A stretch of DNA of 64,000 nucleotides, taken from IMG/VR virus record IMGVR_UViG_3300033076_001354, positions 32,001 through 96,000 of that record. One strand, given 5' to 3'. Below, piece after piece: positions 13,846 through 32,089 of the stretch. This stretch comes from a virus. Lineage: Duplodnaviria > Caudoviricetes. Position 1 is the first letter of the stretch, and every line of letters starts with the position of its first letter. A program made the translations under genes and the position numbers. Under the pieces are notes generated by a model. The model was given only the letters and a program-made list of their open reading frames with translations, was not told where the DNA came from and made no database searches.

Positions 13846-15168
13846 ATGAAAACATTCTGCCCACTACCTTGGAACGGTGTATCCGTACGGAACAACGGCG
13901 ACCTGCGAGTCTGCTGCAACGCGAATTCATATACTAAGAACCAAGGCATCCTTCGCAAGAAGGACGGCAAACCCTACAACGTAGGACGCGACGACATAGG
14001 TGAGTCGCGCAACTCAGACGTTCTCAAGGACATCCGCGTCTCGATGCTGCACGGAGAGTGGCACGAGGAGTGCACGAGGTGTAGGCTCGAGGAAGAAGCC
14101 GGCATCAAGTCGCGCCGCGAGTATGAGAACGAGATCTGGCCGGACGTCAAGCACGAGGTTCTCAATAAGACCGACGACGACGGGACGATCGACACCGACG
14201 ACATCAACCTCGACTACTTCGACCTTCGCTACGGAAACTTCTGCAACCTCAAGTGCAGGATGTGCGGACCAACCGACTCACACATGTGGTACGGCGATCA
14301 CGTAGCGACGACTGGATACACGGGATTCACAGACTCACACGGCCGCGTTCAACTCACAAAGAACGCAAAGGGCAAGTGGTCGACCAACGACTACGACTGG
14401 TTTCAGGGATCCAACTTCTACTGGGATCAGTTTGAGAAGCACACGAAGAACGCCACGAAGTTCTACATCGTGGGCGGTGAGCCGCTCATCATCGAGGAGC
14501 ACATTCAGTCTCTCGAGCGGCTCATAGCCTCAGGCAGGGCGCATGAGGTTGAGATAGAGTACAACACAAACCTAACGAACGTCACCGACAGGATCATCGA
14601 GCTTTGGAAGCACTTCAAGGAGATTCGAGTCGGCGCGTCGATCGACGGCTTCGGTGAAGTGTTTGAGTACCAAAGGTTCCCAGCCAATTGGGACCAAGTA
14701 TATAAGAATATGCAGAAGCTCGATTCGACGCCGGGACTCAATGTTGTAGCTTGGTTCGCGTACACCGTGACGCCTTTCAACATACTTCACCTTCCTGAGT
14801 TCATGAAGTGGAAGCTGACCGACTCTGGACTGAAGAGCTTCAACTCAATAAAGCAGGCTCGCAAGATCGTCAGCCACCACATGTGTCACAGACCTAAGCA
14901 CTACAACGTCAAGTGTCTGCCCGACGACTTCAAGCGCGTAGTCGATAAGAAGTTCGCTGAGTACAAAGACTGGGCTATTCGCAACCAACCCGAGTTTATA
15001 TCCGCACAGTTCATCAAGCTCCTCGACGGGGTTTCGAGCTTCATGAACGCCGAGAGCTACTACGACGAGCACTTCGACAAGTTCGTCGGTCTTACTAAGA
15101 AGCTTGATGAGCTGCGCGGTCAAAGCATTCTAGACGTCGTCCCAGAGTTCGAGGAGTATTTCAAGTGA
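13846..15168 (+). CDS. Radical SAM protein with N-terminal twitch/SPASM-like domain
   Basis: FCPLPW...VCC, CTRC, CNLKCRMC, GGEP, YNTN and SIDG. Confidence 0.9.
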   Translation: MKTFCPLPWNGVSVRNNGDLRVCCNANSYTKNQGILRKKDGKPYNVGRDDIGESRNSDVLKDIRVSMLHGEWHEECTRCRLEEEAGIKSRREYENEIWPDVKHEVLNKTDDDGTIDTDDINLDYFDLRYGNFCNLKCRMCGPTDSHMWYGDHVATTGYTGFTDSHGRVQLTKNAKGKWSTNDYDWFQGSNFYWDQFEKHTKNATKFYIVGGEPLIIEEHIQSLERLIASGRAHEVEIEYNTNLTNVTDRIIELWKHFKEIRVGASIDGFGEVFEYQRFPANWDQVYKNMQKLDSTPGLNVVAWFAYTVTPFNILHLPEFMKWKLTDSGLKSFNSIKQARKIVSHHMCHRPKHYNVKCLPDDFKRVVDKKFAEYKDWAIRNQPEFISAQFIKLLDGVSSFMNAESYYDEHFDKFVGLTKKLDELRGQSILDVVPEFEEYFK

Positions 15169-16004: not shown

Positions 16005-16916
16005 ATGGCAACATCATTCGACTCACTCAAACAGAATCGTAAGTCTGCATTCGATAAACTTACGAGCGAGCTCAACAAGCTCAGCACCAACCAGCAAGAC
16101 TCCTCAGACGACAGCTATTGGAAGCCCGAGGTCGACAAGGCCGGCAACGGCTACGCGGTCATCCGCTTCCTCCCGCCCCCGCAGGGCGAGGACGTTCCAT
16201 TCGTTCGCATCTGGGATCATGGCTTCCAAGGCGACGGTGGTTGGTACATTGAGAAGTCGCTGACGACTATCGGCAAGCCCGATCCCGTCGGTGAGCTCAA
16301 CAGCAAGCTTTGGAATTCTGGCGTCGAAGCCGACAAAGAAATCGCGCGCAAGCAGAAGCGCCGCCTCGCTTATCACTCGAACATCTACGTCGTCAAGGAT
16401 TCTGCGAATCCCGCGAACGAGGGCAAGGTGTTCCTGTATAAGTACGGCAAGAAGATCTTCGACAAGATCAACGAAGCCATGCACCCACAGTTCGAGGGTG
16501 AAGTGGCGATCAACCCGTTCGATCTTTGGGAAGGTGCGAACTTCAAGCTGAAGATTCGCAACGTCGAGGGCTATCGCAACTACGATAAGTCCGAGTTCGA
16601 CGATCCGGCACCGCTGCTGAACGACGACGATAAGCTTGAAGCGATTTGGAAGTCTGAGCACTCGCTTAGCGAACTCATCGATCCTAAGAACTTCAAGTCT
16701 TACGATGAGCTCAAAGCGCGCTTGTCTCGTGCACTCGGTGTCGGTGTTGAAGCTGCACGCGCAGCGGCACCCCGCATCGATGAAGACGAAGCCTTCCCAG
16801 TCCCGCAGAAAGCGGCGGCTGCACCTAAGGTTGAGTCCGCCGCTCCTTCATGGAACAACTCCATGGATGACGACGACGATGACTTGAGCTTCTTTAAGAA
16901 GATGGCGAACGACTAA
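16005..16916 (+). CDS. 32: ssDNA-binding protein gp32
   Basis: DKAGNGYAVIRFLP, YKYGKKIFDKI, NYDKSEF and an acidic tail. Confidence 0.97.
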   Translation: MATSFDSLKQNRKSAFDKLTSELNKLSTNQQDSSDDSYWKPEVDKAGNGYAVIRFLPPPQGEDVPFVRIWDHGFQGDGGWYIEKSLTTIGKPDPVGELNSKLWNSGVEADKEIARKQKRRLAYHSNIYVVKDSANPANEGKVFLYKYGKKIFDKINEAMHPQFEGEVAINPFDLWEGANFKLKIRNVEGYRNYDKSEFDDPAPLLNDDDKLEAIWKSEHSLSELIDPKNFKSYDELKARLSRALGVGVEAARAAAPRIDEDEAFPVPQKAAAAPKVESAAPSWNNSMDDDDDDLSFFKKMAND

Positions 16917-18955
16917 TAAGCGTTTCGCCTCAACGAACTTCCGTACAGTCTCTCATCGTAGGGACCCGGAGGGCCACTAGGACTACCGACGCCGGCGGAG
17001 ACTTGGTTTCCACCGGCGTTTCCGTTTGAAACGTTGTTGTTGACGGTGTCGCCTTGATTGATCACGGTCACGTTGGCGGCTGAGTTGGCTGGACCGTTGC
17101 TGACTTTAGCTATGCTGTCGTTCTTGAGCTTCTGCTCAGCGGCTATCTTTTTTTCTAAGTCGCTTTCGCGCTTCTTCCTAGCGGCTTCGGTCTCAGCCAT
17201 AACTTTTTTATAGTTCTTTTGAGCCTCTTCGAACTGAGGAGTCACCGGTGTGAAAGCTGCCGTCTCAGGCCCATACATGGAGCGCTCGCGCAGATCGGCG
17301 TCGGCTGCTTCATCGTACATCTTTTTAGCTTCTGCCCTGCGAGCTTCTTCTTCTTTCGTAAACCTAGCGCTCAATATATCCTGCTTACGTACTTCGGCGG
17401 CTGAACTTACGGTTCCCGGAAGAAGTGGACTCAATTCGTCGCGAGCGCGATTGATGAATCTCTGTGTATATTCACCGCCGACTTCACCGACTTTTTGGAG
17501 AACACCTTTAGCTCCGGTCTTTTCAGCGGCGTATTCTAAACCTTCACTGGTCGCCATGCCAACGCCTGTACCGATCGCGAATCCACCGACTGGAGTGGCC
17601 ACTGGAGATGAAGCGACACCCGCAAAAGTACCGACCGCGCCGGCGATACCTTCTTTAACGCCGGTGTAAGTTACGGCTTCACCTCGAGCGCGCGCCGCGA
17701 TCATATCGAGCTCTTCAAAAGCTTTAGACGCCTGCGCAAAAGTTATCTTACCGCTGGCGAGCTGCTCTTGCACCTTTGATTTTGCTTTTTCAACTTCTTC
17801 GAGCTTTGGGTTAGAAGATAAATCGGTGATGATACCCAACGCAGCTCCGAGCAGAGCGCCGCCCTTGATTCCATATCCAGCCTTGGGTGATACCTTAGGC
17901 TCAGGTCTACCAAAGAAACCACCCTCCACACCCGGCTTTATATCACCGATGCTTGGAGTCACGGTTCCCGGTTTAGTCAAACCTAATTCCGCAGCGACCT
18001 TGTTTGAAACAAATTTATTCTTATTATTAAGATCCTGCCACCTGCCAGTTTTCTCATTCCAAACTATATTCGGCTCAGCCGCTTGAGGAGTGATCGCAGG
18101 TGCTTCCGGCGCAGCGCCCAGTGTAGGTTCGATGCGCTGCTTAACGCCAGAGATTTCTCGAGAAGCGGGTTTGGGTTCCGGCGTCGGCTTAACTTCAGGT
18201 TCGGCCGAGACGGTAGGTTCAACCCTTCCTTTGCCTTTGGCTTCTTCAGCCATCTGCTCAAAGGTAGTCTTTTGACGCTCTTTCGTTTTACCCGAACTAG
18301 CTTTGTCGACTTCTTCTGTTTTGATTTTTGATGAAGCTTTATCGACTTCTTCTGTTTTGATTTTTGAAGAAGCTTTATCTGGAGCCTCTTCCGCTTTGGC
18401 CTTTGAAGAAGCTTTATCTTCTCTACCGGTGGTCAGCTTCTTAGCAATCTCGGCAAGAGCGGCCGCGCCTAATACGTCACCGATTACACTTGGCGATGGG
18501 GCTTCGTCTTTCTTGACCGTGGCGTTGGTCGTGGCGCCCTTCTGCTTGCTAAAGATGTCCTGCAGCTTGTCGTTGAGCTTGTCGCTGTGAAGCGAGTTCT
18601 TCAGCAGGAGATTCTGCAGGAGCTCGTTGTTTGACTCATAGTACTTGCTGCTGGCCGTCAGAAGGTTGTTGAGCAGTCCATTGGTCTGCTTCGCCAGAGT
18701 CACGAGCTCCTTCTGACCCTCTTTGATGTCTTTGATGTTTTGATTGGCGACCTTTGAGATCTCGACGCTCTCTTTCGAGGAGTCAGCGGACTGCTTTGAG
18801 ATCTTACCCGTAGCTTTAGTAGTCTCAAGAGTATCCTTCATCGTCTTCGACAGCTCAGTCTTGAGCTCCTCGATGGCTTTCGCCGCGGGACCCCCGCGCA
18901 AACCACCTTCGCGCATAAGCTGCTCAAGAATCTGTTCGCCTGTCTGTTTAGCCAT
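16913..18955 (-). CDS. Tape-measure / baseplate hub candidate (gp29-like position)
   Basis: ATG at 18955 overlaps the gp51 stop. Coiled-coil N-terminus, Gly/Ala hydrophobic segments, Asn-rich tail; follows gp26/gp51. Confidence 0.6.
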   Translation of the reverse strand: MAKQTGEQILEQLMREGGLRGGPAAKAIEELKTELSKTMKDTLETTKATGKISKQSADSSKESVEISKVANQNIKDIKEGQKELVTLAKQTNGLLNNLLTASSKYYESNNELLQNLLLKNSLHSDKLNDKLQDIFSKQKGATTNATVKKDEAPSPSVIGDVLGAAALAEIAKKLTTGREDKASSKAKAEEAPDKASSKIKTEEVDKASSKIKTEEVDKASSGKTKERQKTTFEQMAEEAKGKGRVEPTVSAEPEVKPTPEPKPASREISGVKQRIEPTLGAAPEAPAITPQAAEPNIVWNEKTGRWQDLNNKNKFVSNKVAAELGLTKPGTVTPSIGDIKPGVEGGFFGRPEPKVSPKAGYGIKGGALLGAALGIITDLSSNPKLEEVEKAKSKVQEQLASGKITFAQASKAFEELDMIAARARGEAVTYTGVKEGIAGAVGTFAGVASSPVATPVGGFAIGTGVGMATSEGLEYAAEKTGAKGVLQKVGEVGGEYTQRFINRARDELSPLLPGTVSSAAEVRKQDILSARFTKEEEARRAEAKKMYDEAADADLRERSMYGPETAAFTPVTPQFEEAQKNYKKVMAETEAARKKRESDLEKKIAAEQKLKNDSIAKVSNGPANSAANVTVINQGDTVNNNVSNGNAGGNQVSAGVGSPSGPPGPYDERLYGSSLRRNAY
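18290..18420 (-). repeat. In-frame tandem repeat (36-39 bp units) encoding DKASSK(IKTEEV)
   Basis: Four DKASS units; two near-identical 36-mers. Confidence 0.8.
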
Positions 18956-19122
18956 TATTGATTCTTCTGGTTTTGTTCTTCTATGTAGTTGGCCAGCATA
19001 TCGATGAAGAGATCCCGCTCGTAGGGATACATGTCGTTCCAATCGGACATACTGTATTTATGGTGCTGCATCATAGAAAACATAGTCTTATAATAGACCG
19101 GAATGCTGCTATATCCGGTCAA
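18955..19122 (-). CDS. 51: Baseplate hub assembly catalyst gp51 (not in ORF track; in the -1 frame of gp26)
   Basis: LTGYSSIPVYYKTMFSMMQHHKYSMSDWNDMYPYERDLFIDMLANYIEEQNQKNQ matches the gp51 pattern. Confidence 0.85.
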   Translation of the reverse strand: MTGYSSIPVYYKTMFSMMQHHKYSMSDWNDMYPYERDLFIDMLANYIEEQNQKNQ

Positions 19123-19134
19123 AATATAAAAAAA
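19096..19134 (-). other. Putative -1 programmed ribosomal frameshift signal
   Basis: T TTT TTT heptamer (19134-19128), 7-nt spacer, hairpin GACCGGA...TCCGGTC (19120-19096). Confidence 0.7.
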
Positions 19135-19853
19135 TCCTTGAGACCCTTCATAACTACGGTTCTTTTGACACCGTTCGGTAGTACCACTTCGATCTCATGC
19201 TCGAGCGACGGGAGGGTGTCAAAGAACTTACGGATTTGGACCATGATGTCCGCTGGCAGGGATGAGATGAACTTGTCAAGCTCCTCTTTGGTGAACTCCG
19301 ACCGACCGTACATCTTCTCGGCGTCGTAGACTGCATCGACACAGTCGAGGAACATGTCATAGATGTACTCGTCGACTTTCGTGCTGGTAAACTCTTCTTT
19401 CTGTATCATGTCCTCGAGCTTCAAGATGTGGCCCACGTTCGGGTAGTTCATCTTGATGACCATGTCGTCGTTGATCTTGATCGTGCTTGAGTGCTCGGGA
19501 TTGAACTTGACTTTGACCTGCTCGAGGTCGACCGTGAACGGGACGCGAACTGACTTACCTTCGACTTCTTCCGTGTAGTTCAACTCAACCACGTTGCTGA
19601 CCGACACCTTGCGGATGTTTAAGAATAGGTACTCGATGTCGAACATCGCGAGCTTATCGACGTTGATGTCGTCGAAGACGCAGTTCTTGATGATCTGCTT
19701 GATCGTTCCGATGATCTCGTCGACGTCGGTCGACATCTTCATGATGAGAAGAAGCTTCTCCTCCTGCACCGTATATGGTCTGTATGAAACGGTCGTGCCT
19801 GTCGACGGCACGGTGATCTTGAATACCGGATGCTTAATCACGGGTAAGGGCAT
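19119..19853 (-). CDS. 26: Baseplate hub chaperone gp26
   Basis: MPLPVI...VPSTG...YRPYTVQEEKLLL...FDIEYLFLNIR...GLKDFF. Confidence 0.92.
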   Translation of the reverse strand: MPLPVIKHPVFKITVPSTGTTVSYRPYTVQEEKLLLIMKMSTDVDEIIGTIKQIIKNCVFDDINVDKLAMFDIEYLFLNIRKVSVSNVVELNYTEEVEGKSVRVPFTVDLEQVKVKFNPEHSSTIKINDDMVIKMNYPNVGHILKLEDMIQKEEFTSTKVDEYIYDMFLDCVDAVYDAEKMYGRSEFTKEELDKFISSLPADIMVQIRKFFDTLPSLEHEIEVVLPNGVKRTVVMKGLKDFFIF

Positions 19854-19864
19854 AATCTACTCCA

Positions 19865-20629
19865 TTATCTAAGTGTTGATGCGAACGCGGTGACCCCTGA
19901 AATGAGTGCGGCTGGGTTTCGCCTGCCGTTCTGAAGAAGGTTGAGGCCAAAAGCATAAGCCCCACCTATGTTGAACCTATTCTGTGCGTAGTAAGAAGCT
20001 TGAAGCCTCTGCGACTCTGAGTAGTCCATCACCGACGCAGGGATCGCTTTCGTGTCCCAGTTGTTGTAGGCGAAAGCCACGGGAAGTCTAGTGAGTGAGT
20101 CGTTCTGTTCCCAGCCAACGTTGACGTTGCCGAGCGTCATAGGAAACGCTTTGGTCAGTGTGTACTTCATGATCTCCCTGCCGGCTCTTCCGGCGTTTGG
20201 ATCTAAGAAGTGAATCTCGATGACGCCTTCGTATTCTTCTGGGTAGGCATACTCACCATACGCTAGGTTTGAACCCTGCATCACGCCGTTCTGATCGACG
20301 CTGAAGTTGTAGACCATCGCTATCCACTTCTGAAAGAAGTCGAGCACTTTACCGTCTGAGTCGACCAAGAACGACATCTCGACGGGATTAAACGATGTGT
20401 CGTTCGGCCTGTTCTCACTCGTGCCGTAGCCGAGAGGCTTGACTGGTTGAGTTGAGAACGTAAATCCGGGAAGGACCGCGGTGTCGCAGAAGAAGTGCGC
20501 TTCCCTCGGGTAGCTCATTCCCTGAAGAGCTTTAGGCACCTTTGAGACCATAACATAGAAGTGCGACGGCTTGGCAAGACCGCCTCTCCGGTTGATAGCC
20601 GACGTCATGTCTGATATGTTGAATGCCAT
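19865..20629 (-). CDS. Tail tube initiator (gp54/gp19-like)
   Basis: GLAKPSHFYV, CDTAVLPG, FFQKW and YTLTKAFP; tube-family fold. Confidence 0.8.
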   Translation of the reverse strand: MAFNISDMTSAINRRGGLAKPSHFYVMVSKVPKALQGMSYPREAHFFCDTAVLPGFTFSTQPVKPLGYGTSENRPNDTSFNPVEMSFLVDSDGKVLDFFQKWIAMVYNFSVDQNGVMQGSNLAYGEYAYPEEYEGVIEIHFLDPNAGRAGREIMKYTLTKAFPMTLGNVNVGWEQNDSLTRLPVAFAYNNWDTKAIPASVMDYSESQRLQASYYAQNRFNIGGAYAFGLNLLQNGRRNPAALISGVTAFASTLR

Positions 20630-21666: not shown

Positions 21667-21691
21667 TATAAATATCTATGAACTATTTATA
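21667..21691. promoter_or_regulatory. Pair of opposed T4 late promoters serving the divergent operons
   Basis: TATAAATA on + at 21667-21674 and on - at 21691-21684. Confidence 0.85.
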
Positions 21692-30281: not shown

Positions 30282-32089
30282 TGGCAAACAACTTCCTCAC
30301 CACTACCGAGCTGGACTTTGCCAGCCTTAAGAATAGTTTGAAGGCCTATCTGTCCGGTCAGACGAGATTCTCAGACTACGACTTCGACGGCTCAAACATG
30401 AGCGTCCTTCTCGACCTGTTGACGTACAACACATACCTCAACAACTTCTACCTGAACATGGTCGGAAGCGAGATGTTCCTCGACAGCGCGCAGCTTCGTG
30501 AGTCGATCGTCTCACACTCGAAAGAACTCAACTACATCCCTAGGTCAAAGACCTCGGCGAAAGCGATAGTCAACATAACGATCGTCCCGACCGGAACACC
30601 TACGTTTGTAACCATCCCTAAGTTCTATAAGATGTCGACTTCGATCGACAACACGACGTTCACGTTCTCGACCGACTCAGACCACATCGTCTATCCGGGA
30701 ACCAACGGGTACGTCGCATCGAACGTAGAAATCTACGAGGGATCCGTGGTGACCGAGTACTTCACCGCGTCGAACACCGCTAAGTACGTGCTGCAGTCTG
30801 AGAACGTCGATACTAACTCAATCGACGTCACCGTGATCAATTCACAGTATGACAGCGCGAACTCAACTTGGCTCAAGGCAGACAACCTCTATGGTCTGAC
30901 TTCAACGTCGAACGTGTACTTCGTTCAGGGCTACGGTTCAAATCAATACGAGCTCGCTTTTGGCAACGACGTCACGGGCAAAGCTTTGGTCGCGGGCAAC
31001 ATCGTCAAGGTGAGGTACAGGGACACCCTCGGTGAGCTCGGCAACGGTGCATATAGGTTCTCTAAGGGAACGGCGATCGACGGTTACTCAAACATCACGA
31101 TCAGCACGGTGACGACTGCGACAGAGGGATCCGAGAGGGAGTCGAACGACTCAATCAAGTTCAATGCGACTAGGTTCTTCACGACGCAGGAGAGGGCGGT
31201 CACCTCTCTCGACTACGCGAACTTGGCTAAGGCGCGCTTCCCACAGCTTCAGTCGGTCATAGCATACGGTGGCGAGGACATGACTCCTCCACAGTACGGT
31301 AAAGTCGCGGTGTCAGTCAAGCCGTTCGGCACGTCGGGATCCATATCACAAAGCTTGAAGACGAGCATCATCAACTACTTGAATACGAAGAACATCACGA
31401 CTCAGGCAGTCATCGTAGATCCCGAGTACTTCTACGTAAAGGTAGACGCCACCGTCAACTACAACACCTCGGCGACCAACATAAGCAGCGGTCAAGTTTC
31501 TTCGCTCGTCAGAAGCGCGATCATAAACTTCGCGAACACGAACCTTGTTGACTTCGGCGACGACCTGCGCTACTCAAAGCTCGTTGGAGTCATCGACGCC
31601 AGCGAGGGTTCGATCATATCGAACGAGACTGAGCTCAAGATCATCAAGCGCTGGAGCCCGACGGCCGGAGCCGACAGCACCCTCACTTTCAACTTCGACA
31701 ACCAGCTCTACTCTGAGACTGTGTTGTATGAGCTTCCGCAGGGTCACGAGCAGATCGTATATTCGAGCAGCTTCACGTACACCCACACCGACGGAGACGA
31801 CTACGACGCGTACATCGGCGACAACGGTCTAGGCGTTCTCAACATCTATACGAATCAAAACACCTCCAGCGGTCTGGTTCGAACCATCCTTTCTGCGGCG
31901 ATAGGCACGGTTGACTACGCGACCGGTGAAGTCAACTTCACGACGAACATAAAGTCTTACACCGGCAACTACATCTCGATCTACGGTAAACCTAAGAACA
32001 AAGACATCTACGCCGTACAGAATAAGTTTCTCTTGATCGAGTCGTCGGACGTCACGGTCTCGCTCGTTCCATTCGTCGGTAACAACTAA
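30281..32089 (+). CDS. 6: Baseplate wedge gp6
   Basis: LDFASLKNSL, DYDFDGS, EMFLDSAQLRES, QERAVTSLDY and PPQYGKV. Confidence 0.95.
   Translation: MANNFLTTTELDFASLKNSLKAYLSGQTRFSDYDFDGSNMSVLLDLLTYNTYLNNFYLNMVGSEMFLDSAQLRESIVSHSKELNYIPRSKTSAKAIVNITIVPTGTPTFVTIPKFYKMSTSIDNTTFTFSTDSDHIVYPGTNGYVASNVEIYEGSVVTEYFTASNTAKYVLQSENVDTNSIDVTVINSQYDSANSTWLKADNLYGLTSTSNVYFVQGYGSNQYELAFGNDVTGKALVAGNIVKVRYRDTLGELGNGAYRFSKGTAIDGYSNITISTVTTATEGSERESNDSIKFNATRFFTTQERAVTSLDYANLAKARFPQLQSVIAYGGEDMTPPQYGKVAVSVKPFGTSGSISQSLKTSIINYLNTKNITTQAVIVDPEYFYVKVDATVNYNTSATNISSGQVSSLVRSAIINFANTNLVDFGDDLRYSKLVGVIDASEGSIISNETELKIIKRWSPTAGADSTLTFNFDNQLYSETVLYELPQGHEQIVYSSSFTYTHTDGDDYDAYIGDNGLGVLNIYTNQNTSSGLVRTILSAAIGTVDYATGEVNFTTNIKSYTGNYISIYGKPKNKDIYAVQNKFLLIESSDVTVSLVPFVGNN

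Follow-up and report, generated by a model that had tools for sequence, protein, structure and literature searches.

Results

The gp26/gp51 junction and its proposed slip site

The DNA analysed here, hereafter the window, is a stretch of 64,000 nucleotides (nt; positions 32,001 to 96,000) of the virus record IMGVR_UViG_3300033076_001354, an uncultured T4-like phage of the Caudoviricetes. On its minus strand, to which all coordinates refer unless a plus strand is indicated, lie in the order of reading a gene for a tube-like protein (19865–20629), the gp26 gene (19119–19853), a small gp51-like open reading frame (ORF) and a candidate tape-measure gene (16913–18955). The zero-frame product of gp26 comprises 244 amino acids (aa) and matches PF12322 (T4_baseplate) over residues 11–242 with 175.6 bits (E 1.5e-51), passing the curated cut-off of 24.5 bits, as well as phrog_150 in a profile search (E 9e-59). 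The gp51-like frame is given in the ORF list as 55 aa (18955–19122) and matches profile positions 61–112 of 121 of phrog_634, the 'baseplate hub assembly catalyst' (E 6e-17). We propose, with a probability of roughly 85% and judging from the sequence, that a programmed −1 ribosomal frameshift at the junction of these two frames produces both the 244-aa gp26, a putative hub and tape-measure assembly chaperone, and a 299-aa gp26–gp51 fusion.

The 3′ end of gp26 reads AAG GAT TTT TTT ATA TTT TGA, as stated in an original prediction made from the letters of the window alone, and contains the slippery heptamer T_TTT_TTT (19128–19134), which stands in the X_XXY_YYZ phase relative to the gp26 frame (GAT TTT TTT) and is followed after 6 nt by the gp26 stop codon TGA (19119–19121). 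Reading after a −1 slip continues with TAT ATT TTG ACC GGA straight into the gp51 frame, likewise in agreement with that prediction. Counted from the slip, this −1 extension (18955–19128) adds 57 residues, its 57 codons running from TAT at 19128–19126 to the stop TAA at 18957–18955, and the predicted fusion would thus have a length of 242 + 57 = 299 aa beside the 244-aa zero-frame product. We rejected the run of seven T's as such as evidence for frameshifting, because runs of this kind are common in the window (19 found vs 10.5 expected). The signal is significant because its place and phase are conserved in relatives, not because of the run itself.

Conservation of the heptamer and its phase in relatives

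The relatives considered were 80 uncultured viral contigs with a gp26 relative (31–89% identity) and 15 GenBank phages of the single-gene type, and they cover Kyanoviridae, Pelagibacter phage HTVC008M, Schizotequatrovirus (the KVP40 group), Angelvirus, Emdodecavirus, Menderavirus, Innesvirus, unclassified phages and many uncultured lineages. Clustered at 50% identity, their 95 gp26 genes yield 24 groups, and at 40% they yield 11. A T_TTT_TTN heptamer in the gp26 frame was found at 94 of the 95 readable junctions and in 23 of the 24 clusters at 50% identity; it was present in 86/86 junctions of a first set (last base T in 35, C in 29 and A in 22) and in 8/9 further GenBank phages. The gp26 stop codon follows the heptamer at a distance of 0–24 nt, and from the heptamer onwards the −1 frame stays open for 52–71 codons; it is open in all 95 loci. 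The sole junction lacking the heptamer is that of Vibrio phage D506 (OZ195882.1, 1390–1640), in which the −1 frame nevertheless holds the gp51-like ORF, with a start ATG that shares bases with the gp26 stop (TAATG).

The T-run is also preserved in the choice of synonymous codons. Among the 61 distinct junctions, the first Phe codon is always TTT (71% TTT elsewhere in gp26) and the codon preceding it always ends in T; where this preceding codon encodes Ser, it is AGT or TCT in 34/34 cases, compared with 52% T-ending Ser codons elsewhere. When the protein carries F-L instead of F-F, the run is still retained, as TTTTTTA. Its length varies: 51 of the 86 junctions of the first set have six T's only (TTTTTTC or TTTTTTA after a non-T), and some relatives have eight.

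T4 and other two-gene phages

In T4, genes 26 and 51 are separate, divergently transcribed and without a slippery run. T4 genetics identified gp26 and gp51 as baseplate hub assembly chaperones, with gp51 being absent from the particle and its gene being essential (PMC3004832). Of the two T4 proteins, gp26 has 208 aa and gp51 has 249 aa; the latter carries PF12322 over residues 1–201 (E 4e-52) and then the phrog_634 tail (residues 147–246, E 1.2e-23). In the multiple alignment, T4 gp51 is collinear through the shift point (..VDVF/), where T4 gp26 ends (..GLKEFFELL). T4 gp51 therefore runs straight through the shift point and has the architecture that is predicted for the fusion. The two phages thus share PF12322 in both T4 proteins and in the gp26 of the window, a T4 gp51 C-terminus that matches the extension of the window, and a short and a (here predicted) long form; they differ in that T4 has two divergent genes without a slippery run, whereas the window has one PF12322 gene with a frameshift signal. 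As this is the only PF12322 gene in the genome to which the window belongs (157,623 bp, 98% complete), a gp51-type long form could be made there only through the fusion.

Among the two-gene phages T4, Acinetobacter phage Octan, Aeromonas phage 44RR2.8t, Escherichia phage RB16 and Proteus phage Pm5461, none (0/5) has a run of six T's at the end of gene 26, and the gp51 genes of these five phages have no T-run at the equivalent point. The T4 gene 26 end reads GAG TTC TTT, and the F-F motif decays in the other four. Long single-ORF gp51 proteins occur in about 1,375 GenBank records, all from T-even-type phages of enterobacteria, Acinetobacter or Aeromonas. The single-gene type is represented by about 690 GenBank records. 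In RB16 (HM134276.1, 110–2687), gp54, long gp51, short gp26 and gp25 are arranged in tandem on one strand, which is plausible as an intermediate between one shifting gene and the divergent pair of T4. In the record of Octan (MT409116.1, 289–1756), both gp26 and gp51 are named 'tape measure protein assembly chaperone', which indicates that the chaperone role is already circulating in annotation while the frameshift of the other lineages is not.

Coding of the −1 extension and the question of its own start

Conservation of the extension sets in with the first codon after the slip (alignment consensus RIxLSHxSLxNYYKTNFxLMQHHKYSL..MPWERD.Y). The zero-frame tail of gp26, encoded by the same bases, differs among relatives in length (0–8 codons) and also in sequence. 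Folded alone, the extension is predicted to form a three-helix unit (predicted local distance difference test, pLDDT, 90).

We considered that gp51 could instead be a separate small protein, made from its own start at TTG 19122 or ATG 19083 or by a restart after termination of gp26, in which case the T-run would merely encode Phe-Phe. Current annotation agrees with this view: 14/14 inspected records of annotated single-gene-type phages give gp26 by itself; gp51 appears as an ORF of its own, of 31–62 aa from an internal Met (13/14), or is absent (1/14), and a joined coding sequence is given in none (0/14). In the window, the TTG stands 11 nt after an AAGGA and could serve as the start of an independent small protein, D506 has an ATG overlapping the gp26 stop in place of the heptamer, and overlapping stop-start arrangements (ATGA, TAATG) also yield a −1 offset by themselves. 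However, an ATG, GTG or TTG ahead of the conserved block of about 18 residues is absent from the −1 frame in 41 of the 61 distinct junctions, in which the first such codon occurs at codon 8–19, inside the block, and the annotated gp51 starts also fall within the conserved domain. In 11 loci with 24-nt tails the gp26 stop comes only after the conserved block, so that a restart after termination could not make it. The two starts named as alternatives in the original prediction did not hold up either, since TTG 19122 is replaced within its own clade by CTG (loci L009, L011 and L012) or TTA (L015 and L016) and ATG 19083 follows 15 conserved residues of the extension. The maintenance of the T-run at synonymous sites and upon the change to F-L, its loss in 5/5 two-gene phages and the covalent attachment of the extension behind a gp26-type domain in T4 gp51 also argue against independent initiation, which we consider unlikely.

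Candidate stimulatory elements flanking the heptamer

The hairpin expected downstream of the heptamer was confirmed at 19096–19120: a 7-bp stem of GACCGGA (19120–19114) and TCCGGTC (19102–19096) encloses an 11-nt loop and is separated from the heptamer by a spacer of 7 nt (ATATTTT). RNAfold assigns it −11.8 kcal/mol (z −3.25; 2/200 shuffles fold as well), and the clade of the window keeps it at −11 to −14 kcal/mol, with 85.7% of cells paired. Family-wide, the 40 nt following the heptamer have a median folding energy of −7.3 kcal/mol vs −3.8 kcal/mol in control windows of gp26 (Mann–Whitney p 1.5e-6, on sequences that are not independent), and 41% of them vs 9% of the controls lie at or below −8 kcal/mol. 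A marine clade has another hairpin, of 8 bp and 5–6 nt downstream, in which three pairs have both partners substituted (C-G, U-A and A-U occurring at one of them).

On the upstream side, the window has GAAGGG (19144–19149), a weak Shine–Dalgarno (SD)-like stretch 9 nt 5′ of the heptamer and a candidate stimulator. Most marine relatives have GGAGGG at this site. A Glu codon located 11–14 nt before the heptamer is GAG in 34 cases and GAA in one, compared with 292 GAG to 1062 GAA elsewhere in gp26; this fixation as GAG creates the GGAGG or GAGGG found upstream of the heptamer in 35/61 junctions vs 0.3% of background windows. Of the features that the original prediction singled out for a check across T4-like gp26/gp51 junctions, the heptamer and the −1 offset are thus conserved (94/95), whereas the hairpin is lineage-specific. 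We read the stimulators as lineage-specific helpers of a single conserved slip site.

These flanks also bear on transcriptional slippage, in which RNA polymerase would add an extra U on the T-run, so that a fraction of the mRNAs has gp26 and gp51 in one frame. The seven T's of the window and the eight of some relatives would suit such a mechanism, its protein outcome would be nearly identical, and homopolymer runs are known sites of polymerase realignment (PMC5009743). However, more than half of the junctions (the 51 of 86 mentioned above) have six T's only, and the run always stands in the X_XXY_YYZ phase. Six T's are short for productive transcriptional slippage. Moreover, the flanks are of the type that accompanies a ribosomal shift, the hairpin being 5–8 nt away and the SD-like stretch preceding the heptamer by about 10 nt, and we regard a contribution of the polymerase as highly improbable. 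That the signal is a chance feature or relic and the small ORF is not expressed, with only gp26 being of importance, is hardly credible despite the abundance of T7 runs in the window, given that the small ORF belongs to a conserved family (phrog_634), is open in 95/95 loci, is predicted to fold with high confidence (pLDDT 90) and has a T4 counterpart that is part of an essential gene (PMC3004832).

Fold of gp26

The AlphaFold2 (AF2) model of gp26 (pLDDT 87; predicted template modelling score, pTM, 0.82) shows an extra domain after residue 94. When residues 1–94 were aligned exhaustively with 48,161 PDB representatives, 3fgx (Z 7.5), 2ob9 (Z 7.3), the tail assembly chaperone of HK97, and 3klu (Z 6.5), YqbN, ranked on top, with each alignment spanning most of the chain; 5ir0 (Z 5.0) came next, followed by unrelated chains at Z ≤4.2. 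All three leading entries are solved tail assembly chaperones (PMC9603447), and it is unlikely that three of the very few chaperone structures occupy the first three ranks by chance. According to the model, residues 1–94 of gp26 have the tail-assembly-chaperone fold.

Genomic context

The tube-like gene directly upstream of gp26 encodes a gp54-type tail tube initiator (phrog_45, E 4.6e-34; PF23849, E 1.4e-9), and its label in relatives is baseplate tail tube initiator. Ahead of it lie the late operon members gp2 (DNA end protector, 21219–20629) and gp4 (head completion protein, 21656–21219), and a T4-type late promoter, TATAAATA (21684–21691), precedes the operon running from gp4 and gp2 through the tube-like gene, gp26 and gp51 to the tape-measure candidate. 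The window contains eight such promoter sites vs 0.86 expected; none is located between gp26 and gp51. The order of tube-like gene, gp26, gp51 and tape-measure candidate is kept in relatives. Of the names given to these genes at the outset, the first three are borne out by family matches (phrog_45, PF12322 and phrog_634), while the tape-measure label follows from position and composition only. The 680-aa candidate begins with an ATG overlapping the gp51 stop (TAATG), occupies the position of the annotated HTVC008M tape measure and of equivalent ORFs in relatives, and contains a Gly/Ala-rich hydrophobic stretch (approximately residues 435–470). It also has tandem repeats of the KASSK(I)KTEEVD type (approximately residues 180–225), and its length differs among close relatives (672–693 aa).

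A close cultured relative of the phage was not found, a nucleotide search of GenBank phages giving a match of 6% at best. Further observations in the window concern other genes. Two back-to-back TATAAATA late promoters, at 21667–21674 on the plus strand and 21684–21691 on the minus strand, lie between a gp48-type operon and the gp4 operon. The head completion protein of the gp4 type gives a Pfam hit to the N-terminal domain of TnsA-like endonucleases (PF08722, E 2e-23). A radical SAM domain is present in a 440-aa ORF on the plus strand (13846–15168; phrog_14086, E 5e-11), just upstream of the genes for gp33, gp59 and gp32.

Discussion

Based on the position and phase of the heptamer, we propose the following hypothetical course of gp26 translation in which (i) most ribosomes stop at TGA 19121–19119 and release the 244-aa short form; (ii) a minority, with two tRNA-Phe on UUU UUU (19133–19128), slips back by one base onto U_UUU_UU, takes UAU as the next codon and continues for 57 codons; (iii) this slip is probably helped by the hairpin located 7 nt downstream and, in many relatives, probably also by an internal SD-like GGAGG about 10 nt upstream; (iv) the resulting fusion carries the junction ...GLKDFF/YILTGYSS..., with DFFYILTGYSSIPVYYK as the predicted tryptic junction peptide. 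The short form would correspond to T4 gp26 and lambda gpG, the long form to T4 gp51 and lambda gpGT, and the finished virion would be expected to contain neither. On the model of lambda (PMC5009743), the part shared by both forms is most likely what holds the tape-measure protein, the candidate gene of which follows directly downstream, and the three-helix extension, carried by the rare long form alone, most likely links this complex to another component of the hub or the tube initiator, which it would recruit. The sequence analysis itself establishes the conserved, in-phase signal, the start-less −1 coding, the fold and the match of T4 gp51 to the domains of the predicted fusion; that the slip takes place, how efficient it is and what the two parts bind is inferred.

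The arrangement closely resembles that of lambda gpG/gpGT (and also of HK97 gp13 and P2 E/E+E′), in which a pair of overlapping ORFs separates the tube gene from the tape-measure gene, the latter being a candidate here. In both cases, the first ORF carries an X_XXY_YYZ heptamer a few codons ahead of its stop, and the second, which lacks a start of its own, occupies the −1 frame; an abundant short form is accompanied by a rare long form, as predicted for gp26 from its nucleotide sequence; and the N-terminal domain of gp26 shares the fold of 2ob9, 3klu and 3fgx. In contrast to the lambda system, gp26 has about twice the length of gpG, its heptamer is T_TTT_TTN rather than G_GGA_AAG, it has no sequence similarity to any Pfam chaperone family, and T4 genetics places the action of the gp26/gp51 pair at the baseplate hub, in a contractile tail. 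The lambda-like −1 frameshift advanced in the original prediction is supported, and two independent lines strengthen the lambda parallel, namely the chaperone fold of the gp26 N-domain and the existence of T4 gp51 as an unbroken form of the fusion. A second parallel is Escherichia coli dnaX (tau/gamma), where a heptamer is preceded at about 10 nt by an internal SD-like stretch and followed by a hairpin, a layout that recurs in many gp26 relatives. There, however, the shift shortens the protein while it would extend gp26, the heptamer is A_AAA_AAG, and the upstream element of the window is weak (GAAGGG).

Several observations weigh against a programmed frameshift or against parts of our interpretation. 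When placed in E. coli reporters, both U_UUU_UUU and U_UUU_UUA give far less slippage than A_AAA_AAG (PMC5009743), so that the efficiency may be low, which would nevertheless fit a ratio of the G/GT type. The TTG behind AAGGA in the window and the −1 offset that gene overlaps can produce have been addressed above, and D506 probably produces the extension as a free peptide. With regard to the stimulators, covariation in the hairpin of the window's clade is not above that of shuffles, and several clades have no evident hairpin. The Z-scores of 6.5–7.5 behind the fold assignment are moderate, a Foldseek search of the PDB with gp26 gave nothing (best E 0.097), and the gp26 N-domain has no match by sequence to a Pfam chaperone family. 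Finally, the 680-aa ORF (18955–16913) belongs to no Pfam or PHROG family, and BLAST shows no similarity between it and either T4 gp29 or the HTVC008M tape measure, so its tape-measure label stays positional.

Frameshifting in tail chaperone genes is an established mechanism, and what is new is that the gp26 protein family and a large group of phages would join it. A report of a gp26/gp51 frameshift was not found in full-text literature or database records, the coverage of which is thin for subscription journals and is not proof of absence, and a 2016 review describes the G-T frameshift as conserved in long-tailed phages 'except T4' (PMC5009743). We are somewhat inclined to the view that the G/GT-type frameshift is ancestral to the T4 superfamily, and that T4 and its close relatives are derived from it by duplication of the gene (in tandem in RB16, inverted in T4), with one copy fixed for each frame state. 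The ratio of short to long form would then be set by interchangeable stimulators, namely the SD-like stretch in marine clades and the hairpin in the freshwater-type clade of the window. If this is true, gp51, the long-unexplained 'catalytic' hub protein, would be the GT-form of a tape-measure chaperone.

In summary, if the slip is real, the exception of T4 mostly vanishes, since T4 would merely hard-wire both products as genes 26 and 51. The annotation of gp51 as a truncated ORF in 13 records would be a systematic error that could now be corrected. Most T4-like lineages, including cyanophages, pelagiphages, KVP40-like vibriophages, rhizobiophages and many uncultured phages, would share the device and, together with their two-gene relatives, provide a natural series for the gain and loss of recoding signals, ranging from one gene with a slip to a tandem pair, a divergent pair and a free peptide.

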